A stretch of 64,000 nt of DNA from a virus. Lineage: Duplodnaviria; Caudoviricetes. The stretch lies in the IMG/VR virus record IMGVR_UViG_3300037761_000250, positions 1 to 64,000 of that record. The stretch is one strand, 5' to 3'. The position numbers were made by a program, and so were the translations under genes. The notes under the pieces were generated by a model that was given only the letters and a program-made list of their open reading frames with translations, had not been told where the DNA came from and made no database searches. Shown piece by piece: positions 1 to 54,550 of this stretch (position 1 is the first letter of the stretch; each line of letters starts with the position of its first letter).

Positions 1-384
1 GAAGAGTCAGCACTTAGCATTCTCTACGGCATCGATAAAGCGCAGGATAAGACTTTGCGCGACTACGTGGGTTCTAAGGGAGAGTATGTATTCGGTTCCG
101 CAGGTGTGCGTCTCTTCTTGGCTTGTAAGAAATGTAAGATCACCATCCAGGCTCTAACCGGTGGGGTTATGTTGCGTGTAAGGGTGGTGTTGGCTTTTCT
201 GGAGAGGGACAATATCACCAGGGATGACATCCTTCCAGAAGTGGATCCTCTGGAGGGACATGTAGTTGACTATCGCACAAGTCTCCCCAAGCCATACTAA
301 CGTTTTACAAGGTTATACTAGCTACCAGTTTAACTTGTTTAGTTATCTCACCCGTCTACATTATCCTCTAATTGGTAACTTATG

Positions 385-428
385 TATATAGTATATTATA
401 GTATATAGTATATAGTATATATAGTATT
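385..428. repeat. AT-rich low-complexity TATAG(TA) tandem repeat
   Basis: tatatagtatattatagtatatagtatatagtatatatagtatt in a non-coding region. Confidence 0.7.
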
Positions 429-644
429 GTGTAGTTATGAACCGTTGCGGGACATAGCATGTGTTCCTAGTATAACTAACTGGTTTTTATAAAGAAATCT
501 CAGTTGGAGTGAGTATAATGGTATTATATCCGCTCCAACCGGTACATCTGGTAGCTAGTAGTACAGAGTAACACAACAGAAGTCACCGCAGAATTCATCA
601 CGAAGTCGATGCGGAATTCAACAGCCCTGTGGAAGCTTGTGCGT

Positions 645-990
645 GTCGATAGGCCCTTGGACCGACTCGATGACTATGAATTACGGTCGTTCGAGGGTGT
701 TTCCTTCGGCATGTATACATCCCACCATGCCAGGCAGGAATGCAGGGTCGTACCCCAGCACGTCGTCCTCGGTGCAGGGGAAGTTGTCGGCGTCAAACAC
801 GTCGAAGATCGGAGCAGGTTCGGGACTCTGTGAAGTCGTCCCGACTGTATACCCGACCACGAATGTGATGAAGCCAATGAGAAGCAGGGCCAGTGCTGTG
901 CGACCATTCATAAGTTGCTCCTTAGAGACCGATGGTAGGAGTACGATGAGTAGACCACGGCCATCGAGTCGATTCAAGGAGCCTATCGAC
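645..990. repeat. Inverted-repeat pair enclosing gene 681-911 (left array cassette 1)
   Basis: gtcgataggcccttggaccgactcgatg (645-672) vs catcgagtcgattcaaggagcctatcgac (962-990); 2 mismatches and 1 gap. Confidence 0.9.
681..911 (-). CDS. Small membrane/secreted protein
   Basis: ATG at 911 with AAGGAG RBS; N-terminal hydrophobic helix; PCTEDD...GCIH motif. Confidence 0.75.
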   Translation of the reverse strand: MNGRTALALLLIGFITFVVGYTVGTTSQSPEPAPIFDVFDADNFPCTEDDVLGYDPAFLPGMVGCIHAEGNTLERP

Positions 991-991
991 C

Positions 992-1406
992 AGAACCTGT
1001 AACCTTGGGGCAGCTCGGTGGCCTGGGGGGAATGTTACTCGATGGGGTTCAGCAGCGCGTGGACCAGGTCGTTCCGTCGATCAGGGTCGATGTAGAAGAA
1101 GAAGTCCAGCCCGTCGCCCTCGAGCGTGTCGACCCGGATGCGCTTGTGAAGCCGCTGGGACGTGTCGAAGGTCTCTTCGACCGTGGCCGTGAACGTATGT
1201 TCGGTGTGCGGATGGGTTAGGACTTCGAGGTACAATCCGAAGTCCTCGAGGGTGATCTCCTGGGCGTCGTGCTGCGATTCCGCGACGTACTGTGCCCAGT
1301 GCTGCTGGAGCGTTGCCATCAGCTCGCGTACCTGCTCGGTGCTTTGTTCGGTCATGATGTCTCCTTCGAAAGAAGGACACCAAGCCGCCTCAGGGTTACA
1401 GGTTCT
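992..1406. repeat. Inverted-repeat pair enclosing gene 1035-1355 (left array cassette 2)
   Basis: agaacctgtaaccttggggcagctcggtggcct (992-1024) vs aggacaccaagccgcctcagggttacaggttct (1374-1406); 28/33 complementary. Confidence 0.85.
1035..1355 (-). CDS. Hypothetical protein
   Basis: AAGGAG RBS upstream of ATG 1355; high-GC codon usage. Confidence 0.75.
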   Translation of the reverse strand: MTEQSTEQVRELMATLQQHWAQYVAESQHDAQEITLEDFGLYLEVLTHPHTEHTFTATVEETFDTSQRLHKRIRVDTLEGDGLDFFFYIDPDRRNDLVHALLNPIE

Positions 1407-1408
1407 TT

Positions 1409-1967
1409 GGTTCGTAGATCCTGAACTCGGGCCGATCTCCGTACTGCTGATCGTCCTAGATGCGCTTGCTGACGTACTTGATGACGAACGCTGCGGCCTG
1501 CGCCTGGGTCACCGGCTTGGTGTCCTTGACGCTCGGAACGATCATACCGTTCCGGCCGTAGTTGTACGCCGCCTGCGTCCTGATCTGGTACGGCTTGCCG
1601 TCCTTCATGACCCCGAAGATCTCGAGGACTGCGTTGAGGACGCCGGCCACCGCGTACAGGGTCAGTCGGTCACCCTTGACCGTCTCGAGAACGTCCCAGG
1701 TTGCCTGCTCGACAGTCACAGGCTCCGTCTCGGCAGCCAGTGCCTCGAGCACCGCCTCGGACTCGAGGTCGGCCTCGGCAGCCAGCTCGGTTGCCTCCAG
1801 CTCGGTCGCCTCGATGCCCTGGACGTCTTCGGTCTCGGTCGGGTCGGTCGCGTCGATCACGTCGACGGTCTTGGTCTTACTCATGGTAGTCTCCTTCTGA
1901 GTTCTGGAACAGGAATGAACGATGGACTGGAACTCAGAGATCGACCCGAGATCAGGACCTACGAACC
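1409..1967. repeat. Inverted-repeat pair enclosing gene 1456-1884 (left array cassette 3)
   Basis: ggttcgtagatcctgaactcgggccgatctc (1409-1439) vs gagatcgacccgagatcaggacctacgaacc (1937-1967); 28/31 complementary. Confidence 0.9.
1456..1884 (-). CDS. Hypothetical protein with acidic N-terminus; paralog of 2553-2852
   Basis: AAGGAG RBS before ATG 1884; shares PYQIRTQAAYNYGRNGMIV / PYQVRPQMMYNYASSGMIV. Confidence 0.8.
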   Translation of the reverse strand: MSKTKTVDVIDATDPTETEDVQGIEATELEATELAAEADLESEAVLEALAAETEPVTVEQATWDVLETVKGDRLTLYAVAGVLNAVLEIFGVMKDGKPYQIRTQAAYNYGRNGMIVPSVKDTKPVTQAQAAAFVIKYVSKRI

Positions 1968-2256
1968 TATTTGGTAACATGATACTGTTACGTTTGTCAA
2001 GATACCCGAACCCCACTCCTGGAGCTCATGGACGCGCTCGACCACGTCAAGTACGTCCATCAACCTCAGGCAGACTGGTAGTAGTCTTCTCAGCATCAGT
2101 ACTTTAAGTTTTTGTTTCTAATTTTAGTATATAGCGGTCTCTCAGCGCCCCACAAGAGGGCTCTCGCAAGATCTTTTGCACACCAGGTGTAACACTGTGT
2201 TGCAGGTTTTGGGTAGCCGGTAGTCCTTTGTTCTAGACGGTTCCGATGTTTAGGAT

Positions 2257-2478
2257 CTAGCACATACAAGATCCGTTTGTAGATCTGGCCTCGTAGCAGT
2301 CCGGACAAACAGGGTTCCGAACCTTACCTTTCCTGTTCGGCCGGATCCTGTAGCCTCCGGTCAACTTCTCGTCCGCGATCTTGTCTAGCAACCACTCCGG
2401 AGGTTTGCAGCGACCTCCAGGCCAGTTACCTTCATCCTTGTTCCGCTGTTCGCCTAAGAGGCGACTCGAGTACGTCAT
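2257..2478 (-). CDS. Small Cys-rich putative Zn-binding protein
   Basis: AGGAGG RBS before ATG 2478; C-terminal CPDC...GSCMC. Confidence 0.7.
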   Translation of the reverse strand: MTYSSRLLGEQRNKDEGNWPGGRCKPPEWLLDKIADEKLTGGYRIRPNRKGKVRNPVCPDCYEARSTNGSCMC

Positions 2479-2512
2479 GGTTTCCACCTCCTCTCTAGCT
2501 TCCGTCTTTTTG

Positions 2513-2926
2513 GACTAAGATCCTAAGGGCTGAGTCGATCTCCTAGGTAGAACTAGATGAGCTTGTTGATGAACCTGCAGATGAATTCGTAGGCCTGCAA
2601 CCGAGTTACGCTCTTGGCATTCTTATCGCCTTTGACGATCATGCCGCTGCTGGCGTAGTTGTACATCATCTGCGGACGGACCTGGTACGGAGATCCGTTC
2701 TTCGTAACCTCCAGCTGGTCCAGCGAAGAGTTCAGGTACTTCGCCAGCTGGTAGAAGGTCATCTGATGCGGCGCGTCCGCGAGAATCTGCTCGATGACGG
2801 CGTAGACATCCTTGTCGATCTCGAACAACGCGTCCTGGATGATAGTACTCATGATCTTCTCCATTCGAACTTCTGATACGAGTCTGAGGACAGAGAGAGA
2901 TCGACTCAACTCTTAGGATCTTAGTC
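2513..2926. repeat. Inverted-repeat pair enclosing gene 2553-2852 (left array cassette 4)
   Basis: gactaagatcctaagggctgagtcgatctc (2513-2542) vs gagatcgactcaactcttaggatcttagtc (2897-2926); 28/30 complementary. Confidence 0.9.
2553..2852 (-). CDS. Hypothetical protein; paralog of 1456-1884
   Basis: GGAG RBS before ATG 2852; shared YQxRxQxxYNY..GMIV motif. Confidence 0.8.
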   Translation of the reverse strand: MSTIIQDALFEIDKDVYAVIEQILADAPHQMTFYQLAKYLNSSLDQLEVTKNGSPYQVRPQMMYNYASSGMIVKGDKNAKSVTRLQAYEFICRFINKLI

Positions 2927-3067
2927 GCTGTTTAGTTATCAAAGAACTTGTAGCTGTTTTTTTTGTTCTAACTATATTATAATTCAAGATCATTATTTTC
3001 TAACGGCCGCTACGATAAAATCTCTGCCGTGCAGGAAACCTGTAGTAACACTATGTAAAACTTACCG

Positions 3068-3114
3068 TAGGCTAATCCTGTACTAGACTGATCCCGCGCT
3101 AGGCTAATCCTGTA
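3068..3114. promoter_or_regulatory. 15-bp direct repeat upstream of TerS-like gene
   Basis: taggctaatcctgta at 3068-3082 and 3100-3114. Confidence 0.45.
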
Positions 3115-3214
3115 GTAGTACTACGTTACTTGTTACTCTTATATCCTTCTGTCGTGTGATCTCTAGTCTCCTCACTATATACTTGATGTAACAACGTAGC
3201 GTTGGGAGACGTTC

Positions 3215-3559
3215 ATGGCGACCGATCCAAGCACTCCTCAGGACGAGTGGGTGACTGATGAAATGCTCGGCAGGCTCGTAGAGCCGAAAGCAGTGGAAAC
3301 CTACGAGCACGGTGCTATGAGCATATTTCGTCAGAACGCAGTAGAAGCCGCCAAGGCGATCTGCAAGCTAGCAACCCACAGCACCAACGACAGAATCAGA
3401 CTAGATGCAGCTAAGTACGTGTCCGATCGTGTTCTTGGGCGTATTAGCGAGGCACGGCCGACCGATGCTGCAGGCGCTCCATGGGAAAGTGTGTACGAAG
3501 CCGTTGTCAGAGAGCCTACTGCAACCGAACGTGAAAGCGGAGCCCAAGTAGCTCGCTGA
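3215..3559 (+). CDS. Terminase small subunit-like protein
   Basis: Helical protein with RIRLDAAKYVSDRVLG motif, upstream of TerL; C-terminal APWESVYE. Confidence 0.55.
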   Translation: MATDPSTPQDEWVTDEMLGRLVEPKAVETYEHGAMSIFRQNAVEAAKAICKLATHSTNDRIRLDAAKYVSDRVLGRISEARPTDAAGAPWESVYEAVVREPTATERESGAQVAR

Positions 3560-3624
3560 ACTGCGCGAAAGAGCACTCAGGCCCCTGTGGAGGCTGTTGG
3601 GTCGCGGCGGGCGAATTCAAGTCA

Positions 3625-4170
3625 ATGAATGGAGATGACGTGCCACTACTGAATGCTGCGGCGGGCGATACGGTTCAGTATCGCAATGCTGATGGTGAGA
3701 CCGCTAATGTGTATGTGACGGGCGTCCAGCCTACCGCACCTGCAGCTCCAAGTGTGACCACGCAGGGTACTGGCGGGACCCTAGGTGCTGCTACCTACTC
3801 GTATAGAGTCACGCGAGTAGTTGGCGGGGCTGAGGGTCCGCCTAGTACTGCTGGTTCGGTTGTGGTGGGGGCCGGCACGACCAACCGGAACAATGTTGCA
3901 CTGCCGGGTGTGGCTGGTGTACAGTACGGTGTTTACGGCAGAACAGCTGGTACTGAGCGGTTCATTGGGCTGTCTGCTGCAGGCGCAACCACGTTTGCCG
4001 ATACGGGTGCGGTGACGCCCGATGCTGCCCGGCCCGCAACTGGGGTGACTGCTGATGGTCGAATCGGGGCGTTGCAGTTTCACCCAAAGCGAGTGCTAGG
4101 TGCTCCTTCAGGTACGGTCGTTGTCAAGGCTACTAGCATGAAGGATACCGACGTTTACTTCAAGCGCTGA
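3625..4170 (+). CDS. Putative virion accessory protein (G/T/A-rich beta fold)
   Basis: PTAPAAPSV...YSYRVT...GVYGRTAG...TFADTG pattern; position next to terminase. Confidence 0.55.
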   Translation: MNGDDVPLLNAAAGDTVQYRNADGETANVYVTGVQPTAPAAPSVTTQGTGGTLGAATYSYRVTRVVGGAEGPPSTAGSVVVGAGTTNRNNVALPGVAGVQYGVYGRTAGTERFIGLSAAGATTFADTGAVTPDAARPATGVTADGRIGALQFHPKRVLGAPSGTVVVKATSMKDTDVYFKR

Positions 4171-4186
4171 GGCGTAGGGGCGGATT

Positions 4187-4411
4187 ATGGCATGGGTGCC
4201 TAAGATTAACAGGCATGTGACATTGCTGAAGCGTATTAGTGCTTCAGTTGTTAAGCCTGTTCCTGCGGTGATCATAGCCTTCGCTACTGATACCAATCCG
4301 ATTGTCCGCGTCGGACGTCATGGACAGACTTTCGGCAGTGGAGCCGTTGGTGTGCCGCGAAGAACTAATCCGGACGAGAACATTACGGTCACGAAGTACA
4401 TATCGTACTAG
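4187..4411 (+). CDS. Hypothetical protein
   Basis: ORF in plus-strand operon. Confidence 0.55.
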   Translation: MAWVPKINRHVTLLKRISASVVKPVPAVIIAFATDTNPIVRVGRHGQTFGSGAVGVPRRTNPDENITVTKYISY

Positions 4412-4471
4412 CGCCACGCTCGTATAGCTATATAAGCTAGCTACATTTACAGTAGTCCTTAATATTAGGGG

Positions 4472-7006
4472 GTGAGTGCGGGGGTGGCAAGCCTGGTTGT
4501 TGATAAACGAGCGTACTTTCAGCAGCTCGGGTATCAACCACATCCGAAGCAGTGGCTATACCACATGTCTAGATCTCGCTTCCGTGCTGCTGTATGTGGC
4601 CGGCGCTTTGGTAAGTCGTGCATGGCTGCTAGGGATCTTGAGCCGGAGCTGATGGTTCCTAACCGTCGCTATTGGATTGTCGGCCCTTGTGTCGATGAGT
4701 TGACGGAGATCTTTACAGATCGAGGTTGGTTGCGCTACGACGAAGTTGTTGTTGGCGATCGAACACTTTCGATTAACCCCAAGACGGGCTTAAGCGAGTG
4801 GGATACAGTTGAGAAGGTCTTGCGGAAGTCGGGTGTGCATCCTGTCATTCGAATGGAGGGACACTCCTTCTCATCTGTCTCCACACCTGATCACCGTTGG
4901 TTGACTAATAGACGTTGGGACAGTATTGGGGGTGCACGTGTTCCACGTCTTCCGGGGGTCTTGCAGCCGATAGCTGACAAATTGCCCAAGACTGACAACG
5001 GTTGGACTTGGCGCACTACAGCGACGCTTACGGCAGATGATAGAATTCCGACTGCGGCTCCCTGTGTCGATGTCCCTACCGAACCGAAGTACACTGATGC
5101 CTTTGTAGAACTGGTTGCTTGGATCTGGACTGAAGGCTCTCTGTCACGGAGTACGAGGCAGACCCAGACGTGCTTCCAGATACATCAGTCACACGTAGCG
5201 AATCCTGATAAGGTGAGTCGCATTCGTCGTGCGCTCGAGGCAGTTGGTGCCTCCTACTACGAATTTCAGGATGTTCGCAATGGCACACCAATGACTCACT
5301 TTGAGCTCAATGCTACTACGTCGTTCGAGTTCTGGAAGGTCTTTAAATCACATAAGGTGGTAGATCCCGAATTCATTACGTCCCTAACACGTGCACAGCT
5401 GCAGCTCTTTGTTGGCGTCTCCGTTCTCGGTGATGGGACAGGCGTACATCGAGAAACGCAGTGCAATATAGTGCAGGAGAATGAGAAACAGCTTTTTGCT
5501 GTGCAGATGGCCTGCCACCTCCTAGGCATTCGCACCAGCCTGCGTCAGCAGGATATGATGTCATACGGCAAGCCTGGAAAGAAGTGGGTGCTAGGCCTCC
5601 TAACGCAGACCTTCGTGAATCCTAAACGGGCTGTGTACAACGCCGGAGCCGAAGGTATGCGCATCACGTACGAGACGTACGAGGGGACTGTTTGGTGTGT
5701 AACAACTCGTAATGGTAACTGGCTTTCTCAGCGTAAGGGTTCTGTGTCATATACTGCAAATACCTACGATCTCGGGGAGAAAGAATTTCGGTATCTCTGG
5801 CAGGACATGATCATCAAGCTTCGGTTCGGTCGAGACAAGCGAGTCAAGAAGGCTTACAACAAGCGTAGCGGTGAGATGTATATAGAGTTTCCGTGGCAGA
5901 CGCGTGTTGAAGTAAGAAGCGCCCAGCACCCCGAGACGCTTGTTGGTGATGGCCTCCATGGCGCCATTATGTCGGAGGCCGCGAAGCACCGCAAGGACAC
6001 CTGGGAGCAGTATATTCGCGCAGCTCTTTCGGACTTCCGTGGATGGGCGACCTTCGTTACTACTCCAGAGGGCTTCAACTGGCTATATGACCTTTGGATG
6101 TTGGGCATTTCTGGAGATGTTGGGCTTAAGGACTACGAGTCGTGGCGGTTCCCGTCGTGGGACAACCCCATTGTGTATCCTGGCGGTCGTGAGGATGAGG
6201 AAATCAAGCTCATCGAGCGTACTACGGCACTAGAGTGGTTTATGCAGGAATTTGGTGCTGAGTTTGGCGCTTTCGTTGGTAAGATCTATGGCGAGTTCGA
6301 TCCGACGTTGCACATCAAGCGACACACCTTCAATCCTGCATGGGCTAACTACATTGCCTTCGACTGGGGCTTCACGAATCCGTTAGCTGCAGTAGAGTTC
6401 CAGGTTGACCCTTGGGATCGGGTGTATGTGTGGCGCGAGCACTACAAGTCCTTCCTACAATTGGGTGAACACATCCAGATTCTAAAGAATCGCCAGCAGC
6501 CTGAAGGGTACCACCTAGACGTTGGATTTGGTGATGCTGCCGATCCTGCGGCTGCGATGGAGATGAGTACACACTTTGTTGGTACGTGGGCACTTCCAGA
6601 GGCTAAGGAGAACTGGCGTCAAGGTGTGGATTTGGTTAAGAAGTTCTTGAAGCCTCGGGATGTGTATAGCCCCGGTGGTAGTCTGGTTGTTTGTGATGAG
6701 TATGGCACACCGCTTCAAGAGCCGTGGATGTTTATAGATCCATCCTGTATTAACACCATCCGAGAGTTCAACAACTATCGTGCAGCTGATGCTCGGCCCG
6801 AAGTCAACCCCCGAGAAGCAGCCAAGAAGCATGATGATCACGCGCTCGATGCTATTCGCTACGGACTCATGCACATCTTTGAGTTGGGTTGTGCGTCACG
6901 CTTGTCGGATGTGTACGACCTGAACGAGTTTTCCGACACCTCAAAAGCCTTCGGATCTGTTGAGGGCTCGGGGTACTTTACCACAAGCGATCTGGATGAC
7001 ATGTAG
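4472..7006 (+). CDS. terL: Terminase large subunit containing an intein
   Basis: Walker A GRRFGKS, Walker B IMSEA, TTPEG motif, nuclease DWG and DHALDA; collinear with 57618-59153 apart from a 358-aa insertion. Confidence 0.95.
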   Translation: MSAGVASLVVDKRAYFQQLGYQPHPKQWLYHMSRSRFRAAVCGRRFGKSCMAARDLEPELMVPNRRYWIVGPCVDELTEIFTDRGWLRYDEVVVGDRTLSINPKTGLSEWDTVEKVLRKSGVHPVIRMEGHSFSSVSTPDHRWLTNRRWDSIGGARVPRLPGVLQPIADKLPKTDNGWTWRTTATLTADDRIPTAAPCVDVPTEPKYTDAFVELVAWIWTEGSLSRSTRQTQTCFQIHQSHVANPDKVSRIRRALEAVGASYYEFQDVRNGTPMTHFELNATTSFEFWKVFKSHKVVDPEFITSLTRAQLQLFVGVSVLGDGTGVHRETQCNIVQENEKQLFAVQMACHLLGIRTSLRQQDMMSYGKPGKKWVLGLLTQTFVNPKRAVYNAGAEGMRITYETYEGTVWCVTTRNGNWLSQRKGSVSYTANTYDLGEKEFRYLWQDMIIKLRFGRDKRVKKAYNKRSGEMYIEFPWQTRVEVRSAQHPETLVGDGLHGAIMSEAAKHRKDTWEQYIRAALSDFRGWATFVTTPEGFNWLYDLWMLGISGDVGLKDYESWRFPSWDNPIVYPGGREDEEIKLIERTTALEWFMQEFGAEFGAFVGKIYGEFDPTLHIKRHTFNPAWANYIAFDWGFTNPLAAVEFQVDPWDRVYVWREHYKSFLQLGEHIQILKNRQQPEGYHLDVGFGDAADPAAAMEMSTHFVGTWALPEAKENWRQGVDLVKKFLKPRDVYSPGGSLVVCDEYGTPLQEPWMFIDPSCINTIREFNNYRAADARPEVNPREAAKKHDDHALDAIRYGLMHIFELGCASRLSDVYDLNEFSDTSKAFGSVEGSGYFTTSDLDDM
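4688..5761 (+). mobile_element. Intein with LAGLIDADG-type homing endonuclease domain
   Basis: Starts Cys (GP|CVDELTEI), block B TPDHRW, endonuclease motifs ELVAWIWTEG and FVGVSVLGDG, ends SYTAN|T; absent from second TerL. Confidence 0.92.
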
Positions 7007-7015
7007 GAGACTTAA

Positions 7016-7417
7016 ATGACAATTGGATATGATGTCACACTACGGAATACTAGGCTCGACGCAATTACCACTCGTGCTGGTAATGCTGCGTTGTTGCGTG
7101 TTTATAATGGCACCCGTCCGGCAACTGGGGCGGCAATTACTAGTCAGGTGTTACTAGCGGAGCTGACTTGTGGTTCTCCGTTTGCGGCAGCCGCTGCGGC
7201 CGGAGTCCTGACCGCAAATGCGATTACGCAGGATGGGGCGGCTGATGCTACCGGCACTGCCAGTTGGTTCCGACTCCTACAATCGAATGGTACCACTTTC
7301 GTTGTGGATGGTGACGTTGCCGCTTCTGGTTCTGATCTGAACCTGGATTCCATCAGTATCGTTGCCGGTGGTACTGTGTCGGTCACATCGTGCGTAATCA
7401 CACACGGAAACCCGTAA
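7016..7417 (+). CDS. Putative virion structural protein
   Basis: LRVYNGTRP...GTASWFRL...DGDV...DLNL resembles a widespread phage virion accessory family. Confidence 0.65.
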   Translation: MTIGYDVTLRNTRLDAITTRAGNAALLRVYNGTRPATGAAITSQVLLAELTCGSPFAAAAAAGVLTANAITQDGAADATGTASWFRLLQSNGTTFVVDGDVAASGSDLNLDSISIVAGGTVSVTSCVITHGNP

Positions 7418-7434
7418 TAGAATAGGAGAATATC

Positions 7435-7746
7435 ATGGCAGGTGGATACTACGACCTATCCACGGGAGTGACCGTCAACCAGGTGGCCGGTGGAATCGCC
7501 ACTCGAGCACGCGATGTCATGCTCGATATTGTCAAGTTCGAGGTCTTCCGGACGGCAAATGTTCTTACCGCTGCGCCGTTTAGCCTGCCACAGGCGTCTG
7601 TTGATGACATTGGCAGCGCATTCCTCGATCTCGCGCACTTCCAGAAGATTTGGGCTGGAACGGTCCAGGCTCGCGATAAGGCGGACGCGGCATTTATTAG
7701 CTATGACTTCCAAACGTTCGTGAAGCGACTTTACGGACCACGCTAA
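7435..7746 (+). CDS. Hypothetical protein
   Basis: AGGAG RBS; ORF in operon. Confidence 0.65.
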   Translation: MAGGYYDLSTGVTVNQVAGGIATRARDVMLDIVKFEVFRTANVLTAAPFSLPQASVDDIGSAFLDLAHFQKIWAGTVQARDKADAAFISYDFQTFVKRLYGPR

Positions 7747-7758
7747 TCTAACAACCAA

Positions 7759-9942
7759 ATGACTACAGTCCGTAGGCTGGGTAACGCCGACGACATCTCC
7801 TTTTCCACTGGACTCGGAGGTGTCGACGGTGCTACCTATGGTACGATTGCGATTCTGTTCCGCCCGTTGGCGGATCCAGTCTGGCATTGGCTGGTAAAGC
7901 TACACGATATCTCCGGTGTAGAACTAGGTGGTGTCGGGGTACTTAGCGATGGAAGGTTATATTGGGCCGGCGAGACCATCTGGTGGACAGAAGGACCAGC
8001 TGTTACTTTTGGTGATTGGCACGTGTTGGTCGCTCGGAAGAACACTGGCGACTTAAAGCCAAGGTTCAGCTTGCAAAATGTTGCGACGGACATGTGGAAT
8101 CATGCTGATGGCACAGAAACCCAACTGGACTGGATAGCGCCGTCGGGTGGCAGCATTCGCACCAAGGACGCGGCTTCCGGTGAGGGGCCAAACGCCGACT
8201 ACGCCGCAGCAGCATTTTGGGCAAACGAGCTACCGTGGGCGGCCGACACGACTGGCGACGCGGAAATTGAGGCAGCCAACCTCTACGAGCATTTGAACAA
8301 CTGGCGGGATCACAGTCCGTCGTCTGGCTGGCAATTTTCCCAGACTAGCTCCAGTGAAATGGTTGAAGACTTCACCCTTAATCGGGCTGATGAAACATCT
8401 ACCGGTGTTGGCACTCCAATTACCGCAACCGACCTCGACTTTACCTTTGAAGATGTCGGTATCCTCGCCCTGTCTCGTAACTTCTTTCGCGACACCCAGA
8501 CGGAACCCGGCACCGGTGGGATCATTCGGGATTTGTCGGAAACCCAAGGTACCTCCACTACGTTGACCTCGGCAGGCATCTCTGGTGGGTTCACCGAAGT
8601 ATTCCGATTTTGGCGTGTCGTTGACGCTACGGTGGACGCCAGCGTAACCATAGACACGTCAATTGCCATGTCCTCGGTGTCCGCGGCCACACTGGCCTAT
8701 CGATGGCGGGTGCAGCGTTATAACAGTGCCGGCGTGTTGCAGGAAAGTTCCAGTTACTCCAGTGAACACAACACGTTCGGCGTAAAAACGCAGACGATGA
8801 CGTTGACTGGACCATTCGTTGCTGGTGATAGGCTTGCGCTAAGTATGGAACTGCGCAAGACTTCTGGCGGCGGTTCCAGAACCGTTACCCTGAGCGTTAA
8901 CCACCCCAACTCGTGGGTCGAGTTTTCAATTGCCGAGATACCATCGATTACTGGAACCATCAATGTAATAGAGGATTCCGATACTTTAGCTGCTTCTGGC
9001 ACCTCTGTTCCCCCACCAATTAGCGGAACCATCAACGTAACAGAGGCTAATGATACTTTAGCTGCTTCTGGCACGTTTGCTAGTCCAGGAGTAACTGGTA
9101 CTATAGCAGTTACCGAAGATGATGATACTTTAGCTGCAAGTGGTACCTTTGTTCCTCCACCAATTACAGGTACGTTGTCCGTCACTGAAACTGATGATAC
9201 ATTATCCTCCTCAGGTACTTTTACTCCAGCACCAATTAGTGGTACCTTATCAGTTACCGAAGATAACGATACACTTGCAGCTTCTGGTACAGTTACTACG
9301 GGTGGTGTAGTTGGCAGTATTTCTGTAACCGAAGCTGACGATTCTATAGTTGCTACAGGAACATTTGAACTTCCAACAATTTCCGGTACATTGTCTGTTA
9401 CTGAAACTAATGACACTTTATCGGCTACTGGTACTTTTGAAAGCGAAGGTATAACTGGTTCCATTGTAGTAACCGAAGAGAATGATGATTTAACTGCTTC
9501 TGGTACAAATACACTTCCGACGATTTCCGGCATTTTATCTGTTACTGAAACTGATGATGATTTAATTGCTTCTGGTACGAATACGACGCCGACGTTTTCT
9601 GGTACTATTTCTAGTAATGAAGCTGACGATAGTTTAGTTGCTTCTGGTACTTTTACTTCTCCATCAATTACCGGAAGTGTTTCAGTTACTGAACAATCTG
9701 ATTCGTTAGTTGCTACTGGTATTGTAACTTTGCCAGTTATAACGGGTAGTATAGTTGTAACTGAGGAAAACGATGAGTTGGAGGCTTTTGAGTCTTCACC
9801 AATTGTTGCTGCAATTAGAATAATAGATGTCACTGGACCGGCTCGATCGGTCAATCCAAATATCAGTAGTGGACCTAAAATTAAACTAAATACGCCGACT
9901 GGCGTGAATGTTGCAAGAGTTATTACTGGGGTGAGGACATGA
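7759..9942 (+). CDS. Putative virion surface/tail protein with twelve 24-aa repeats
   Basis: Repeats of type PxITGTLSVTExxDTLxASGTFxx from about 8941 to 9800; beta-rich N-terminal domain. Confidence 0.75.
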   Translation: MTTVRRLGNADDISFSTGLGGVDGATYGTIAILFRPLADPVWHWLVKLHDISGVELGGVGVLSDGRLYWAGETIWWTEGPAVTFGDWHVLVARKNTGDLKPRFSLQNVATDMWNHADGTETQLDWIAPSGGSIRTKDAASGEGPNADYAAAAFWANELPWAADTTGDAEIEAANLYEHLNNWRDHSPSSGWQFSQTSSSEMVEDFTLNRADETSTGVGTPITATDLDFTFEDVGILALSRNFFRDTQTEPGTGGIIRDLSETQGTSTTLTSAGISGGFTEVFRFWRVVDATVDASVTIDTSIAMSSVSAATLAYRWRVQRYNSAGVLQESSSYSSEHNTFGVKTQTMTLTGPFVAGDRLALSMELRKTSGGGSRTVTLSVNHPNSWVEFSIAEIPSITGTINVIEDSDTLAASGTSVPPPISGTINVTEANDTLAASGTFASPGVTGTIAVTEDDDTLAASGTFVPPPITGTLSVTETDDTLSSSGTFTPAPISGTLSVTEDNDTLAASGTVTTGGVVGSISVTEADDSIVATGTFELPTISGTLSVTETNDTLSATGTFESEGITGSIVVTEENDDLTASGTNTLPTISGILSVTETDDDLIASGTNTTPTFSGTISSNEADDSLVASGTFTSPSITGSVSVTEQSDSLVATGIVTLPVITGSIVVTEENDELEAFESSPIVAAIRIIDVTGPARSVNPNISSGPKIKLNTPTGVNVARVITGVRT

Positions 9943-34933: not shown

Positions 34934-35006
34934 TGCCCCCAACAGGATTCGAACCTGCGACCTTCGCATTAAAAGTGCGTAGCTCTGGCCACTGAGCTAT
35001 GGAGGC
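34934..35006 (-). tRNA. trnK: tRNA-Lys(UUU)
   Basis: Cloverleaf: GCCTCCA/TGGGGGC acceptor, loop CT-TTT-AA, GGTTCGAATCC T arm. Confidence 0.92.
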
Positions 35007-35056
35007 AAAAATGGGGAGGCTATATGCCTCCCCGTTTTTATTTCAACAAATATGTT

Positions 35057-35557
35057 CTACAGTCCTACCTCAGTTGCTGCATGTTCCGCTTGCTTTGTGG
35101 TAAATCCTTCGAATTCCAACTGCTCGATCAGTCCTTGACGGGAGAAGTTCGAGAACTCAAGGTAATTCTCGGCACTACCAACAGCCTGCGCCATCCAGTC
35201 TACATCTAGATAATCAACCGCGAACTCGGCATCTTCCGTAGAGAATCCTTCGAGTTCTAATTGATTAATAAGTCCCTTGCGGGAGAAATTGAAAATATCC
35301 AGGTAATTTTGAGCCGATCCAGTTGCTTGTTTCTGGGCAGTTGTCAACTCTGGATCGGTTGACATTTCTGTTTCTTTATTATTCTCAGGTTGAACGGTAA
35401 TGTTATCGCTCTGTCCTAAAGACGTAAGGGTAACAATTGTACCAAGAAGACACATCCCCAAAATTCCAACTAATACAATTAGAACAATCCTTCTTGTTTT
35501 GTTCTTCTTCTTTTTCGGAGGAAACTCTCCGTTTTGTTGTGGATAATACTGTGTCAC
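35057..35557 (-). CDS. Ltp-family lipoprotein (superinfection exclusion-like)
   Basis: TM helix then two SA.NYL....FSR.GLI.QL..EGF repeats. Confidence 0.85.
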   Translation of the reverse strand: MTQYYPQQNGEFPPKKKKNKTRRIVLIVLVGILGMCLLGTIVTLTSLGQSDNITVQPENNKETEMSTDPELTTAQKQATGSAQNYLDIFNFSRKGLINQLELEGFSTEDAEFAVDYLDVDWMAQAVGSAENYLEFSNFSRQGLIEQLEFEGFTTKQAEHAATEVGL

Positions 35558-35604
35558 TAAATTCCTTTCAAGTATTTAAGATATAATATATGGTTTCACT
35601 TGCG

Positions 35605-35677
35605 TAGTCCCAATGGGATTTGAACCCATGTCTCCGGAGCGAAAATCCGGAATCCTTGGCCACTAGACGATGGAACC
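35605..35677 (-). tRNA. trnE: tRNA-Glu(UUC)
   Basis: GGTTCCA/TGGGACT acceptor, CCGGA-TT-TTC-GC-TCCGG anticodon arm, GGTTCAAATCC. Confidence 0.9.
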
Positions 35678-35679
35678 AG

Positions 35680-35779
35680 GGAATAGTGTTGCGGTTGGAA
35701 ATTCCGCCTCCGTGCCTCACTATTGCTCAATGGCAAGATTACTCGGCAAGGTACCTTCCACGGCCCTCTTCACTATTCC
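35680..35779 (-). ncRNA. Candidate 100-nt structured RNA between tRNA-Glu and tRNA-Gln
   Basis: Terminal 9-bp helix GGAATAGTG/CACTATTCC, internal CCGTG/CACGG and hairpins. Confidence 0.45.
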
Positions 35780-35780
35780 G

Positions 35781-35852
35781 CTGGGATACCAAGATTCGAA
35801 CTTGGACTGTCGGAACCAAAATCCGATGGCCTGCCATTTAGCCTATATCCCA
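35781..35852 (-). tRNA. trnQ: tRNA-Gln(UUG)
   Basis: TGGGATA/TATCCCA acceptor, TCGGA-TT-TTG-GT-TCCGA, AGTTCGAATCT. Confidence 0.9.
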
Positions 35853-35856
35853 TTGC

Positions 35857-36290
35857 AGTGTTGAGGTTATTCACGTCTCTAGAAAGTAAACGGACAAAGA
35901 AAACTTTCGAGCCGAAGAACAGGAATGTTTGGAGCCATTCCTGCATTGTTCTTAAAACAATTGTTCCCTCAACACTACGCTTATTGAACCCACGTCAGTG
36001 ACCTAAGATGATTAACAGCCTGTGATGTTAATTTATCATCTTATATTAGATGGTCATTGACGTGGGTCTTTCACAACTCAGGACTTGACTAATAATCAAG
36101 TAAGGCGCCTGAGCTAGCTTTAAGTGGGTATCGTGGTTGCCAGCCCATACCCAGTAAATCTCACCTGGCCGAACAGATGTATTCACAGTGCGTCGGTGCA
36201 CAGACAGAGCGTTCTATTGTCCAAACGGGTCAGGGTGCTTGAGCAATTAACGGGTGTCTTTACCATTTGTTAGTAAAATTTACTAACATC
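35857..36290 (-). ncRNA. Candidate structured ncRNA region
   Basis: Consecutive stems 35857-35866/35967-35976, 35988-36003/36052-36067 and further hairpins; no credible ORF. Confidence 0.55.
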
Positions 36291-36294
36291 GACG

Positions 36295-36436
36295 TGGGGC
36301 GGACAGGACTTGAACCTGTATCCTGCTGTCGTCGTTCACCCACCGGAAACCTCGCCTTGGTTGGCTACTCAGCCCAGCTATTTTCCAGCTTAACAGGTGG
36401 TGCTAGCACGCAGCTCTACCGTTGAGCTACCGCCCC
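36295..36436 (-). tRNA. Atypical 142-nt tRNA with ~69-nt structured insertion (Ala-like body, possible AGC anticodon)
   Basis: GGGGCGG/CCGCCCC acceptor, GCTC/GAGC D stem, ACAGG-TTCAAGT-CCTGT T arm; insertion folds into three hairpins. Confidence 0.7.
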
Positions 36437-36438
36437 TC

Positions 36439-36742
36439 GATGGAGGAAAATGGCCATTCCCTCCATCTATCTACATTTGTTTAAGGAAAATAAACGTAGA
36501 AAACAACCCCACAGTTTAGGATGCACGTCCCGAGATAGCGGTTCTCACAACTTTTGTGTGACTTGTCACGAACCACCAGCTAAAGAAGTTTGTAAACGTG
36601 CATTCCAAACTTCTTTACTGGTTCAGTCGATGACGAGGAGTAAGTTGCCAACTCACCTCGAACCTCACGCAGTCGAGGCCAAGCGTCCAGTTTTGGTTTT
36701 GTTCACTTTAAGTGAACCAAGGTGTAACTGGAAAACACCTCG
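36439..36742 (-). ncRNA. Candidate ~300-nt structured ncRNA
   Basis: Stems gatggagg/cctccatc, 36581-36592/36606-36617, gttcact/agtgaac; loop complementary to 36521-36528. Confidence 0.55.
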
Positions 36743-36815
36743 TGCGCCAAGTAGGATTTGAACCTACACTATACCGGGCTTAAACCGGTTGCCTCTACCG
36801 TTGGGCTATTAGCGC
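36743..36815 (-). tRNA. trnL: tRNA-Leu(UAA) with short variable loop
   Basis: GCGCTAA/TTGGCGC acceptor, ACCGG-TT-TAA-GC-CCGGT, 5-nt variable region, GGTTCAAATCC. Confidence 0.85.
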
Positions 36816-36829
36816 GTCTAAATGAGTTG

Positions 36830-37791
36830 TTTAATTTATTATTTACCACTTAATGTGGAAGTGTCGCGTCGACTTTGCAACTCAGTATCCGGCGGTCCTT
36901 CTTGTTTAAGACAGTGTATCTGTCACCGTCAATACTGGACACTTCCACATTAAGTGGTCAATAATAAATTAAAAGTTAAAAAGTTGTGAGTAGTCCCGGA
37001 CGGATTAGTCTTAGTCTGTTCTCCCAGGCCGGGACACCCAGTTCCAGAACTTTTAGTGCGCGCGCTCCGTGGTCTCGTCGCCGAGATTGCATACTCACAA
37101 CTTGGACAATAGCCAATATATCTAGATATACTGACTATTATCACTTGGGCACATAACTAGATGTCGTTTAATACCGAGGTTCTCCAACCAGGTACCCCAA
37201 GCTTAGTAAAGGTCAACAGACGAATAATAATCCCCTATCCGTTCTGCCCGTTACCGGATTTTCGACCTTCACTGATTCAACTTTTGGAACTACGGCGTCG
37301 ACCAAACCGCACTTGCCTCTTTAATCCCTATGCCTAATCCTGACGGACAGGTCTCCCTCACGGGTGGCCACGGGCCGCAACGCAGAGCTACCTCGTTACG
37401 GTAGATGCGGTTCCTAACCCTTATCAATCCCGGAGGATGATAAGGAATTAATTTGTCCATCGTGACGACAATGTTTGCTCCGTCCATGAACTTTCGGTTT
37501 GACCAGAGGAACTATTGCGCGGATTCAGGCAATTAATCTCACGATTAATGCAATCTCCGAGGAGATTATCTTTGCTCATCGCTCACACTTCCGGAGTGTC
37601 CACCGGAAGACTCCTACCACCGACAGGGAAAATTCGAAGGTATGCCTTTAGTTCGCTAAGCTGAACAGGTCATGACTCCTGCGTGCCACATCCGTGGAAG
37701 TACCACTGTTATATGACATACCAACGTTTTAGGTGTCCCGTTTTTCGCGCACCTTCGGGACCACAAGGCGAGGAAGCATTAAATGCCGCGG
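36830..37791 (-). ncRNA. Candidate large structured ncRNA (~960 nt)
   Basis: 36-bp IR (35/36) at 36830-36865/36938-36973, 12-bp helix 36981-36992/37092-37103, many hairpins, no credible ORF. Confidence 0.6.
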
Positions 37792-37865
37792 TGGCGGGGA
37801 CGGGATTTGAACCCGTGAACTCCAGATTATGAGTCTGGCGTGGTACCGAACTCCACTACCCCGCG
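37792..37865 (-). tRNA. trnM: tRNA-Met(CAU), initiator-like
   Basis: CGCGGGG 5' end with C1xC72 mismatch, CCAGA-CT-CAT-AA-TCTGG, TTCAAAT T loop. Confidence 0.88.
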
Positions 37866-38185
37866 TCACGTAGCGGTTGGTTAGGCCGCTACGGTCGGGA
37901 ACCACCCGACAAGTCCAAGAGAAATATTAATTCCTAACCGATTATAGGATCGTTATTCTCTTGGAGGTTTGAGTGGGCGCCTGTTCAGTCTATCGTATTG
38001 GCGACAATCCCTTGACGCCTCAAAAGTCAGGCCGGTCGTTTAAAACATTCCAGCGCGTGTAAGAATGTCCCCACGTGTATTTCTAAGAATTCAATTGTCA
38101 ATGTCCGTTTGCTGCCCGTTTGTGGCCCGTTCGGGCGCCTCTCGCCCTATCGTAGCGCATGGGCGGGCAGGCGCGCAACCCGGTA

Positions 38186-38219
38186 TCAAGATCAAGTTAC
38201 TCGAGTAACTTGATCTTGA
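38186..38219. promoter_or_regulatory. Perfect 34-bp palindrome upstream of tRNA/ncRNA cluster
   Basis: tcaagatcaagttactc|gagtaacttgatcttga. Confidence 0.7.
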
Positions 38220-38236
38220 CGAATAGGACTGGTGTA

Positions 38237-38479
38237 CTAATGCTGTTTATTCCAGGCCAAATCAAACGCATCATCCGCATCATCATTGGATGGTCCAATT
38301 GAATTAGTCGGATCAGGTGGTGGCAATGGAACTACACTAGTTGGTAATGTAAAATTATCCGTCGGTCTATCTTTAACTAGCCAATTAATAATTTCCCATG
38401 GAATCCAAATTAGTGCTCCAAACCCGCAAGTCAGTATGGTAATAATGCACAGGAATAGTCTTATTTTTCTTGATTCCAT
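38237..38479 (-). CDS. Small membrane protein
   Basis: N-terminal TM, Pro-rich then acidic tail. Confidence 0.65.
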   Translation of the reverse strand: MESRKIRLFLCIITILTCGFGALIWIPWEIINWLVKDRPTDNFTLPTSVVPLPPPDPTNSIGPSNDDADDAFDLAWNKQH

Positions 38480-38490
38480 GTATATATACC

Positions 38491-38730
38491 TTACACTGAT
38501 AGCAGTTCATTCTTAACTAAGTAATTAAAGCTTACATCACTTAGCCATAGATTTATTCCATAATTATTAACGTCCGCAGTTACTGCGAAACTGCTACCAT
38601 ATGGTAAATCTTCACGTTCCATCAAAGACTTAACTAACTCATTTACTGTTTCTCGTTTTGCTTGAACGTGGTGTGGAAATACATCGGGCAAATTCTTTTG
38701 GTAAATTGACATATTAATTTCACTTACCAA
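38491..38730 (-). CDS. Hypothetical protein
   Basis: ORF in operon. Confidence 0.55.
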   Translation of the reverse strand: MVSEINMSIYQKNLPDVFPHHVQAKRETVNELVKSLMEREDLPYGSSFAVTADVNNYGINLWLSDVSFNYLVKNELLSV

Positions 38731-38996
38731 TCTTTTCTATGTTGAGAAATGTGAAGTCCTCTTGACTTTAGCATTTCTTCAAGTCTGTCTACCTTTAAAA
38801 TAGACAGAGCCTGCTTGTCTAATGCCTCTTCTACTTCCTCAATGACAGGTGGTGTTGAACTTAATTTAGTAGGTTTATATTCTTCACGACAAGACTTACA
38901 ACGTACTGGTGGTCGACCGCGCCCTCCTCGAATTTTAAATTCCTGACGACAGTCTCGGCAAACACGAGTATTAGTTAACACTGTTAATAATTCCAA
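38724..38996 (-). CDS. Zn-binding hypothetical protein
   Basis: CRDC...GRPPVRCKSC. Confidence 0.6.
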   Translation of the reverse strand: MELLTVLTNTRVCRDCRQEFKIRGGRGRPPVRCKSCREEYKPTKLSSTPPVIEEVEEALDKQALSILKVDRLEEMLKSRGLHISQHRKDW

Positions 38997-39192
38997 TCAC
39001 TAGAACAATAATTGCAAAGATTGCAATTATTATGAATGGCCAGCCCGTAAAATGTTCACCATCACTATCACCATTACCATTCCAGTCGGGCATTTTTATT
39101 CTCCAAGATCATTTTGTAGGTACACTAATGTTAATCCATTTCATAGGTGGTAAGAGGAGGAGTGCCGAGCGTCCATAACGACACTCCTCCAG

Positions 39193-39266
39193 TGGGACAA
39201 GAGGGACTTGAACCCCCGACCGATCGATTATGAGTCGACTGCTCTAACCAGCTGAGCTATTGTCCC
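39193..39266 (-). tRNA. tRNA(CAU), elongator Met or Ile2
   Basis: GGGACAA/TTGTCCC acceptor, GTCGA-CT-CAT-AA-TCGAT, GGTTCAAGTCC; anticodon arm resembles Ile2 tRNAs. Confidence 0.88.
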
Positions 39267-50354: not shown

Positions 50355-50892
50355 ATCGATGATCTTGAACTAGCTATCTTCAAGGTCATCGATGAGACAC
50401 CCCCCTCTGACCTGCGAGTATGCGGTGAATCTACGCGATCTGCTTTATTAGTAAATGAGAATCGATGATCTTGAACTAGCTATCTTAAAGATCATCTATG
50501 TGTCACCCCTTCTGACCTGCTCATATTCGGTGAATCCACGTGATCTGCTTTATTAGTAAATGAGAATTGACCACTGTCGATCACTACTTGATCTACTAGA
50601 TCAGTGGTCGTCGATTCTACGTGATCTGCTTTATTCGTAAATGAGAATGCCCTGGTCAGAGCGTTTTTGATCTCATTTACCTCTTAGAATGAAAATGAGA
50701 ATTTGCAAGATCAAAATACCTCCTGAGCTGCACATTCTCATTTTCTCTTATCTATGAGCGGATCACGTATATTTGATGGTTGTCAATTCTCATTTACTAA
50801 TATAGCAGATCACGTAGATTTGCCGAGTATGCGCAGGTCAGACCCGGTGTTCCATCGACGATCTTGAAGATAGATAGTTCAAGATCATCGAT
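50355..50892. repeat. ~105-bp unit: two direct copies, one partial, one inverted; putative replication origin
   Basis: Units 50355-50460, 50461-50565, partial 50616-50648, inverted 50785-50892; each full unit contains an internal palindrome. Confidence 0.85.
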
Positions 50893-52597: not shown

Positions 52598-52937
52598 TTA
52601 TACCACTATATGGTGACTCGCCACGGATGTACAGTTTTTACAGGCTACTGCCGATAAAGTCGATAACCTTAGTTTGGAACAGTTTGATTGCTCTGTTCCA
52701 ATTGTGCGTATAGGTGCCATTGATCCATCCGCCGCAACTGAGCGATTCTTCCGTTATGGTGGCAACTACGTACTTTGTAGGTGCTTGTGTCCAGTGGTCT
52801 GGATAGATTTCTACCAGAATGACGCCAATTGTCGGACCCGTGTAGGAATGAATCACTGTGTACCCATTGAGGGTACTTGGGATTTTTAGCATGACTTGTC
52901 CGTTTCTATGTGGGCAAGTCACCATATAGTGGTATAA
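52598..52937. repeat. Inverted-repeat pair enclosing gene 52638-52892 (right array cassette 1)
   Basis: ttataccactatatggtgactcgcc (52598-52622) vs ggcaagtcaccatatagtggtataa (52913-52937); 24/25. Confidence 0.9.
52638..52892 (-). CDS. Hypothetical protein
   Basis: YVVA.I....L..GGW..G.Y motif; ACGGACAA upstream of ATG. Confidence 0.65.
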   Translation of the reverse strand: MLKIPSTLNGYTVIHSYTGPTIGVILVEIYPDHWTQAPTKYVVATITEESLSCGGWINGTYTHNWNRAIKLFQTKVIDFIGSSL

Positions 52938-52979
52938 CACTTAATTGTCTAGGCATGTGCCTACTTGTCCGGAATTGTG

Positions 52980-53186
52980 CTAGTTGCGAGGATAGACCAT
53001 TTCGCACTTTTCGCACTCTACTGTGCGGGTTTGTGCAACTGTGTCCAGATCCTCATCATTCACGTACATCATCCCGGAAACCCACGAATGAAGGCATTCG
53101 TCCGGATAATCTGGAATGTCCGGATCGTCTGGATAGCTGTTTCTGTCCTCATAGTCCATTTCGAGGAAACTGTCCAGTTCGTACAT
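52980..53186 (-). CDS. Acidic Zn-ribbon small protein
   Basis: CLH.W...CEKC; ATG 53186. Confidence 0.6.
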   Translation of the reverse strand: MYELDSFLEMDYEDRNSYPDDPDIPDYPDECLHSWVSGMMYVNDEDLDTVAQTRTVECEKCEMVYPRN

Positions 53187-53190
53187 TTTG

Positions 53191-53361
53191 CTACTTCCTG
53201 TCCAGATAGAGAACATTGTCACCGATTACCACAAATGACTGACCGGTACCGTTTCCCTGGATTTGCGCATTCCATGCGCAAAAGCCCGGACTGTCCTCAG
53301 TTGGGCAGGATGGGGCAATTGCGAACAGAATCGCAATTAGGAAGTTTAAGAAAAATTCCAT
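53191..53361 (-). CDS. Small secreted/membrane protein
   Basis: Hydrophobic N-terminus, PSCPTEDS..C.WNA..GNG.G.SF; GAGG RBS. Confidence 0.65.
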   Translation of the reverse strand: MEFFLNFLIAILFAIAPSCPTEDSPGFCAWNAQIQGNGTGQSFVVIGDNVLYLDRK

Positions 53362-53457
53362 GGTTTGTACCTCTCTGTCCGTTTTGTGTGGACAAGTAGG
53401 CGCAAACCTAGACAATTCTAGATGAATCCGGACATATGCTGCCATGTCCAATTTGTC

Positions 53458-53724
53458 TTAAAGGATCTGATCTTTCCGAACTAGGTAGGTTCTGTGTGAA
53501 TTGACCGATTCGACTAGGTATCGGTCAATTGGGATGACAAATCCATTGTGGTACTGTTCGTACGGCTTTGCGTCGAGTATCACCTTCACCCGAATTGGGA
53601 TCAATGCGTCATCTAGCATGACTTCGACCGTATCCTGGATATTTGTGCCGTAATAATCGGTTCCGTACTTTTCGCTGCATTCGCGGCAATAGCGCGGATC
53701 GTGGTCGTGTGTCCTAGTTGTCAT
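53458..53724 (-). CDS. Hypothetical protein
   Basis: H.H...C..C; ORF inside cassette. Confidence 0.6.
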   Translation of the reverse strand: MTTRTHDHDPRYCRECSEKYGTDYYGTNIQDTVEVMLDDALIPIRVKVILDAKPYEQYHNGFVIPIDRYLVESVNSHRTYLVRKDQIL

Positions 53725-53730
53725 GATTTG

Positions 53731-53976
53731 TCAGTCCGTCAACAGATTCGCGTGGAGTAGATTGGAAAGTCTGGTATGGAACCTAGTGCGTGCGATGATG
53801 TATCTGTCCGTAAACTCACAGTCGCCCAATTCGTCCCGTTCGAGACTTTTTATTGAAATGTTCCCCACGACCCATTCGTCCTTATCCTCATTGGATGCGA
53901 GGATAATACCAAATACGGGGGTAACATATGCCATGTGCACTTTGTACCCTTGGATACTATCCGGAACCTTTAGCAT
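53731..53976 (-). CDS. Hypothetical protein
   Basis: ORF inside cassette; GGACAA upstream of ATG. Confidence 0.6.
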   Translation of the reverse strand: MLKVPDSIQGYKVHMAYVTPVFGIILASNEDKDEWVVGNISIKSLERDELGDCEFTDRYIIARTRFHTRLSNLLHANLLTD

Positions 53977-54025
53977 GATTTGTCCATTCTGTTAGGACAT
54001 AGCAGCATATGACCGGATTCATCGT

Positions 54026-54548: not shown

Positions 54549-54550
54549 TA

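Follow-up and report, generated by a model that had tools for sequence, protein, structure and literature searches.

In the genome of an uncultured soil phage, small genes upstream of the terminase are each enclosed by a private pair of inverted repeats (IRs) whose two arms can pair as a long helix. The phage is known from IMG/VR record IMGVR_UViG_3300037761_000250, a linear contig of 79,278 bp with a CheckV completeness of 100%, and the stretch that we analysed (hereafter the window) comprises its positions 1–64,000. The genes form an array on the minus strand (645–2926, hereafter array 1) that lies immediately upstream of the packaging operon, on the opposite strand from it. The feature is real and conserved, and the helix is under selection. 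We consider the array most likely to be an RNA-level device, in which the processing-stalk principle is applied serially to protein-coding early genes.

Architecture of the cassettes

A reading of the window made from its letters alone (hereafter the sequence-only reading) had placed four IR pairs in array 1, each around a single gene. All four are found in the sequence, with arms of 28–33 nt, and each encloses exactly one minus-strand open reading frame (ORF) with a Shine–Dalgarno site. The spacing that it gave for the first three cassettes (c1, c2 and c3) is also right: a gap of 1 nt (991) and a gap of 2 nt (1407–1408). The array is not, however, continuous. The segment 1968–2512 interrupts it between c3 and the fourth cassette (c4) with an AT-rich spacer and one small Cys-rich gene (2257–2478, minus strand) that is not enclosed here, and whose homologues are IR-enclosed in four related contigs (L004, L005, L082 and L086).

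Read in the direction of the mRNA, c1 extends from its 5′ arm (962–990) to its 3′ arm (645–672). This pair has a duplex energy of −45.6 kcal/mol and a 1-nt bulge, because of which it is detected as two offset blocks. The c1 cargo gene (681–911, minus strand) has an AAGGAG site ahead of its ATG at 911. Its small product is hydrophobic in one segment near the N-terminus and carries a GP79 domain (PF17463, E=5.8e-11; phrog_828). In c2, the 5′ arm (1374–1406) is complementary to the 3′ arm (992–1024) at 28 of 33 positions, and the cargo gene between them (1035–1355, minus strand) encodes 106 aa that match no family. The arms of c3 (1937–1967 and 1409–1439) are complementary at 28 of 31 positions, and their duplex is predicted to be worth −57.4 kcal/mol on the sense strand as against −48.4 kcal/mol on the antisense strand. 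Those of c4 (2897–2926 and 2513–2542) are complementary at 28 of 30 positions, or 29 of 30 in the related contig L001.

The cargo genes of c3 (1456–1884, minus strand, 142 aa) and c4 (2553–2852, minus strand) are paralogues (blastp, 37.5% identity, E=7e-20). They belong to a recurrent cargo family with the motif YQ[IV]RPQxxYNY that is present in nearly every array, with homologues in L004, L007, L021, L038, L039, L086 and L087. The family protein has an acidic, disordered N-terminus and a confidently predicted helical C-domain of ~85 residues that bears the motif. Neither Pfam, PHROGs nor the PDB holds a match for it; the c3 family was modelled with AlphaFold (pLDDT 72.6), and the model matched no PDB entry below E=0.8. 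Nearly all cargo genes lack a match in Pfam or PHROGs, and neither array of the contig matches an Rfam family.

A survey of 32 non-redundant cassettes from nine contigs reveals a uniform order of parts: 5′ arm, leader with ribosome-binding site (RBS), ORF, stop codon, short spacer and 3′ arm. The 5′ arm is 24–41 nt long. The leader that follows it, mostly of 18–90 nt, includes an AAGGAG-like RBS, which always lies within the loop and never in the arms, and the distance from the stop codon to the 3′ arm is 1–54 nt (median 12.5). Cargo ORFs encode 41–163 aa, and two cassettes of the second array of this contig (see below) hold two ORFs each. Every cargo gene is on the operon strand; not one of the 32 cassettes is inverted. 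Cassettes measure 245–665 nt and stand up to seven in a row, with most junctions of 0–5 nt.

The paired arms thus stand far apart, with loops of 137–600 nt between them, and form helices of 24–41 bp, for which the energies computed on the mRNA strand range from −39 to −63 kcal/mol. We folded the 1,333-nt minus-strand RNA of 640–1972 in silico. The minimum free energy and centroid structures both hold the three long-range helices of c1, c2 and c3 as consecutive closed domains.

IRs of this strength are not due to chance. An ungapped scan of the whole contig (loops 100–1,500 nt, score cut-off 18) returned 14 IRs with a score of at least 18: three in array 1, five in the second array, five at 50355–50892 and one elsewhere. 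The shuffled-sequence control that the sequence-only reading had proposed returned none (100 dinucleotide-preserving shuffles of the 79-kb contig in 1-kb blocks). The cluster at 50355–50892 differs in kind from the gene-enclosing stems. In this ORF-poor stretch, which lies ~1.7 kb from the second array, long repeats, both inverted and direct, are densely nested, and their arms reach 114 nt at 85% complementarity.

That second array (52598–54937, minus strand) is made up of five IR-enclosed cassettes that abut one another. It lies upstream of the second terminase module, and its position relative to the second terminase (57618–59153) is equivalent to that of array 1 relative to the first. We found no similarity between the arms of the two arrays, in agreement with the sequence-only reading.

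Covariation and strand preference of the helices

The arms change together. We compared homologous arms between phages or between paralogous cassettes, and sorted the columns that differ. In 88 columns both members have changed and still pair; in 22 only one side has changed and pairing is kept through G·U; and in 24 one member is unpaired. In the c1 stem, T650C is offset by A984G in L001. Compared with another relative, L087, the c2 stem has three double changes and the c1 and c3 stems have two each. Compensated changes also separate the homologous arms of two cassettes of the second array, d1 and d4 (arm letters compared by eye). This divergence by compensatory double substitution supports the structure-based system that the sequence-only reading had proposed.

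Conservation is also higher in the arms than in the cargo. Nucleotide identity of the window to L087 is 85% in the arms and 61% in the coding sequences between them. L087 carries c3, c2 and c1 in the same order as the window, with c1 and c2 proteins that are barely or not recognisably related to those of the window. In two cassettes compared between L038 and L082, the arms and untranslated regions (UTRs) are ~100% identical around ORFs that are strongly diverged. The earlier suggestion that arm sequence is not conserved therefore stands in part: arms differ between arrays and between relatives, whereas orthologous arms outlast their cargo.

Some positions that are not Watson–Crick pairs are kept while their neighbours covary. 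These are U·G in the F1 arm family, U·U in the c3 family and A·C in c1 and c2. Their persistence makes simple arm-to-arm gene conversion unlikely, and suggests selection on a specific, imperfect helix.

Moreover, the helices prefer the mRNA strand. Transition mismatches appear as G·U on that strand in 36 cases and as A·C, the equivalent of G·U on the opposite strand, in 20 (binomial p=0.044). By computed energy, the mRNA strand gives the more stable helix in 26 of the 32 cassettes and the less stable one in 5, with 1 tie (mean difference −2.2 kcal/mol; Wilcoxon p=0.0013), and the direction of the asymmetry agrees in both arrays. A compositional or mutational bias would predict the opposite, because the mRNA-strand background leans to A and C (TG/CA ratio 0.69 at four-fold sites and 0.62 in UTRs). 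Loops of hundreds of base pairs preclude cruciform extrusion in duplex DNA, and cruciforms were ruled out here because the loops, at 137–600 bp, are too long. We consider it probable that the IRs have an RNA-level function of some kind.

Distribution among relatives

Related loci were gathered through their terminase and cargo proteins from IMG/VR, JGI metagenomes and Logan assemblies. About ten related metagenomic contigs carry abutting, private, gene-enclosing IRs at the corresponding site upstream of their terminase, namely L001, L004/L033 (six in a row), L005/L034 (seven), L007/L035, L021/L053, L038 (four), L039, L082 (four), L086 (three) and L087 (three). These arrays are at the same place and on the opposite strand, and their arm sequences differ, which bears out the claim that it is the architecture and not the arm sequence that is conserved.

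The sequence-only reading had gone on to suggest that the system is shared across this phage family. The pattern does recur in relatives; its range is narrower than that. It was found only in a sub-clade with terminases at least ~67% identical, together with the second array of this contig, and no array was found, even at a lower threshold, in the 4.5–6 kb of upstream sequence from 24 more distant relatives (terminase ~52–65% identical). The layout is therefore a clade-level trait. As the second array, it is also present independently in the AT-richer main body of the contig.

A proposed mechanism

On balance we favour the following account, which is built from sequence and predicted folds: the arms would pair over long distances as RNA helices within a polycistronic early transcript, and these helices are probably substrates of host ribonuclease III (RNase III), whose cuts would yield monocistronic messages clamped at their ends. 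Those small genes of the minus strand that lie beside the putative divergent promoter region would be transcribed leftward and together, as a polycistronic early RNA, bringing both arms of each pair onto one molecule. In the cell, the sequence before each RBS would then pair with the sequence after the stop codon in a private helix of 25–40 bp. Because each gene has its own helix, the transcript would fold as a chain of closed domains, usually with one translation unit in each. Cleavage by host RNase III would free every cistron as a separate message, both ends of which stay in the residual stem. As the helix strands lie on either side of the gene, the two ends of one message would be clamped together, and the residual stem would shield the message from exonucleases at either end and insulate the RBS from neighbouring sequence. 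Because each domain would be structurally self-contained, cassettes could be lost, gained and refilled without disturbing their neighbours.

We found no RNase III gene in the phage, so any cleavage would be the work of a host enzyme. On the minus strand of 1–4500 a consensus scan, itself uninformative, predicted no terminator-like site and no convincing internal promoter. RNase III of Bacillus subtilis is able to cleave duplexes that form within one mRNA between segments hundreds of nucleotides apart (bioRxiv 10.1101/2023.03.12.532304).

The main rival, which we think unlikely, keeps the helices and dispenses with the cut. The uncut helices would act as RBS insulators, as barriers to scanning by RNase E or RNase J, or as sites for a double-stranded RNA (dsRNA)-binding protein that times early expression. 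All of the evidence for RNA-level selection fits this alternative equally well. The placement of the RBS in the loop and never in the arms suits it too, and the conserved internal mismatches could equally serve to lower RNase III cutting. What counts against it is the length of the helices. Bacterial RNase III needs a helix of roughly 20–22 bp; those described here, at 25–40 bp uninterrupted, are well above this need, and their escape from cleavage would require special features. In addition, no gene for a dsRNA-binding protein was identified among the few families searched.

Gain, loss and reassortment of cassettes

Cassettes come and go as whole units. The entire c2 cassette (992–1406) is missing in L001, where an unrelated spacer of 9 nt stands instead. 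L038 cassette B is missing in L082, and the junction shows a microhomology of only 2 nt; conversely, L082 cassette E is missing in L038. These insertions and deletions (indels) fall exactly at IR ends. L001 also has an extra small minus-strand gene (5369–5593, ~60 aa) where the window has 41 nt (2031–2071), and this gene has no obvious enclosing IR.

Arms and cargo are reassorted as well. One cargo family can be found in differing arms, and homologous arms can hold unrelated cargo. L034_5356 has F1-type arms around a cargo homologous to that of L004 cassette 3, whose arms differ (sequences read by eye). The Cys-rich family of 2257–2478 is enclosed by F2 arms in four phages, by other arms in L039 and by none in the window. 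Throughout, cassette order is syntenic among relatives.

Such events lend themselves to a second alternative, that the IRs are primarily DNA-level boundaries of mobile cassettes. Structure-specific recombination, or replication slippage on folded single-stranded DNA, would then make the array a recombinase-free or trans-acting counterpart of an integron. The exact presence or absence of c2, B and E at IR ends would follow naturally, as would the exchange of arms between cargo families, the unrelated cargo in homologous arms, and the identical arms and UTRs around diverged cargo in L038 and L082. We nevertheless regard it as improbable. There is no tyrosine recombinase (PF00589) or serine recombinase (PF00239) gene in the 79-kb contig or in four related contigs, and we found neither common terminal sequences for a transposase to recognize nor target-site duplications. 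Order is syntenic, no transposed copies were seen in foreign contexts, and no cassette is inverted. The mRNA-strand bias is unexpected for a duplex-DNA signal, and loop size precludes cruciform extrusion. The indels are explicable without a dedicated machinery, and we read them, together with the reassortment, as a consequence of modular, self-contained units that undergo homologous exchange in conserved arms and UTRs and hairpin-promoted slippage.

Known kinds of mobile array were also considered and rejected. An integron, or a cluster of attC sites lacking an integron-integrase (CALIN), shares with these arrays the cassette-wise presence and absence among relatives seen for c2, B and E; here there is no IntI-type recombinase, no local attC hairpin or common core, and the arms are a whole gene apart. 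Miniature inverted-repeat transposable elements and insertion sequences, including the mycobacteriophage element MPME, do not fit arms that are private, common only to orthologues or paralogues, and that lack a target-site duplication. Invertible segments are excluded by the uniform orientation of the 32 cassettes.

It is most improbable that the IRs are functionless scars of gene acquisition, for example inverted duplications from illegitimate recombination, since scars would decay, whereas these arms outconserve coding sequence and stay complementary through many double substitutions, even if the cargo genes are orphans of mosaic history.

Several points weigh against the account that we favour. 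The cassettes are partly homologous, so that the p-values given above overstate independence and fewer than 32 cassettes effectively enter the tests. Conserved mismatches are in some cases A·C on the mRNA strand (in c1, c2 and the F5 arm family), and hence G·U on the other. The gene at 2257–2478 has no stem. Finally, the exact gain and loss of cassettes and the reassortment of arms and cargo are DNA-level events, which an RNA model explains only indirectly.

These DNA-level events might nonetheless be tied to the RNA device. We suggest, tentatively, a recombinase-free 'plug-in socket', in which the private, covarying helix that host RNase III would cut, to give single-gene messages with clamped ends, would also define the unit of DNA that is deleted, duplicated and refilled, and in which modularity of the RNA would make the early region evolvable.

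Relation to known systems

A close structural parallel is with the leader–trailer stalks of ribosomal RNA (rrn) operons, the RNase III substrates that enclose 16S and 23S rRNA. There, too, distant segments of one transcript enclose a unit, units follow in series and the stalks covary. Enclosing helices of at least ~20 bp and compensatory evolution, as in rRNA stalks, were both found here in silico. The difference is in what is enclosed: here the units are protein-coding cistrons, each with an RBS, of 245–665 nt, up to seven in a row and 0–5 nt apart, and cleavage is putative.

Another close parallel is with phage early transcripts. Phages T7 and T3 (R0.3, R0.5, R1, R1.1 and R1.3) and the Bacillus phage SP82 have RNase III sites between their early genes. 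In these phages a polycistronic early RNA is cut to single messages, and mismatched stems stay at the ends and stabilize them. Their sites are local intergenic hairpins, however, whereas here the strands of the helix flank the gene.

Pairing across hundreds of nucleotides of mRNA also creates RNase III targets in B. subtilis and Staphylococcus aureus. In the icaR mRNA of S. aureus, for instance, pairing of the 5′ and 3′ UTRs makes an RNase III substrate and hides the RBS (PMC3868564). Those are single regulatory cases; the arrangement described here is serial and modular, with the RBS in the loop.

The nearest evolutionary analogue is the promoter-early stem-loop (PeSL) cassette of T4-type phages, in which one motif, a promoter plus a local terminator hairpin, recurs as direct repeats (Arbiol et al. 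2010, PMC2839356). In both systems small orphan early genes occupy a plastic region, and conserved non-coding elements mark gene gain, loss and replacement. We rejected membership of the PeSL class because no repeated promoter-plus-terminator motif is present as direct repeats. Instead each cassette has a private inverted pair, the arms have no sigma-70-like hexamers, and no direct-repeat family flanks the genes.

Integron cassettes, attC sites and CALINs resemble the arrays in their small, co-oriented cassettes, in the primacy of structure over sequence, in the retention of non-Watson–Crick positions and in unit-wise presence and absence. The arrays described here have no integrase and no R/L core sites, and an attC hairpin forms locally at the cassette's 3′ end, not from a pair of gene-flanking arms.

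Genome papers on Gordonia and Tsukamurella phages have counted inverted repeats and called their role unknown (PMC4524720, PMC4972346). In full-text literature searches we found no account of phage mRNAs with arrays of gene-enclosing helices.

If our reading is right, phages have extended to mRNAs a device by which bacteria package rRNA for processing. Each early gene, typically a candidate for host takeover or anti-defence, would be an autonomous, insulated and exchangeable expression unit, and this would account for the tolerance of hyper-variable early regions to a constant turnover of genes. The arrays would provide a sequence signature for early operons and their fast-evolving cargo in metagenomes, and natural parts for insulating cistrons in synthetic operons.

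Genomic setting

Between array 1 and the packaging operon lies an AT-rich divergent region (2927–3214) with three TAGGCTAATCCTGTAGTAG-like copies at 3068–3118, a candidate promoter region. The operon itself begins with small genes (3215–4411), followed by the terminase large subunit of the first module (4472–7006; phrog_2). Short repeats of the TATA(G)TATA type recur in AT-rich islands beside the arrays, at 360–440, 3036–3126 and 55400–55470 of the window, and islands of the same kind are present in L038 (150–230 and 2240–2270). These islands probably serve as promoter or operator regions for early genes. The window contains 29 copies of the heptamer ACGGACA where 7.35 would be expected, a count that none of 100 shuffles reached. 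Ten minus-strand copies fall at 52897–55290, in the second array and the sequence adjacent to it upstream, several of them ~5–20 nt before cargo starts. The heptamer is thus a candidate element of the leftward early operon, whether as operator, promoter or leader.

Base composition varies along the contig. G+C content is 52–60% at 1–9342 and ~40% at 9–45 kb, and 1–9342 is 92–97% identical to the metagenomic contigs L001 and L002, which represent another phage lineage. In L002 the terminase module runs on into portal and capsid genes. The two arrays are of separate ancestry, because array 1 sits in the GC-rich block that matches the L001/L002 lineage. This block comprises 1–9342 of the window and 77462–79278 of the contig, and contains a second, partial packaging module. 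The genes at 7016–7746 have a counterpart of ~82% similarity (identified via L001) at 78189–79261 of the contig. The presence of two terminases in the contig may reflect natural recombination or a chimeric assembly.

Among deposited phages, the terminases match only those of actinophages, at 32–36% identity, and neither megablast of 1–6000 nor tblastn of two cargo proteins found a close deposited relative. For the second terminase, no relative was found in IMG/VR. The first terminase large subunit has 844 aa, compared with ~478 aa in homologues from relatives. The excess is an insertion at residues ~65–430, common only to L001 and L002, that resembles an intein with an endonuclease-sized middle; a Pfam search gave no intein match.

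Downstream, a gene at 7759–9942 encodes a 727-aa protein with about ten tandem repeats of ~27 residues (SGT..VTE..D.L.ASGT). G+C content drops midway through this gene, and L002 has a co-linear homologue of 729 aa. Further into the window, seven clustered matches to tRNA models lie on the minus strand at 34934–39266; one of them, of 142 nt (36295–36436), contains a large insertion.

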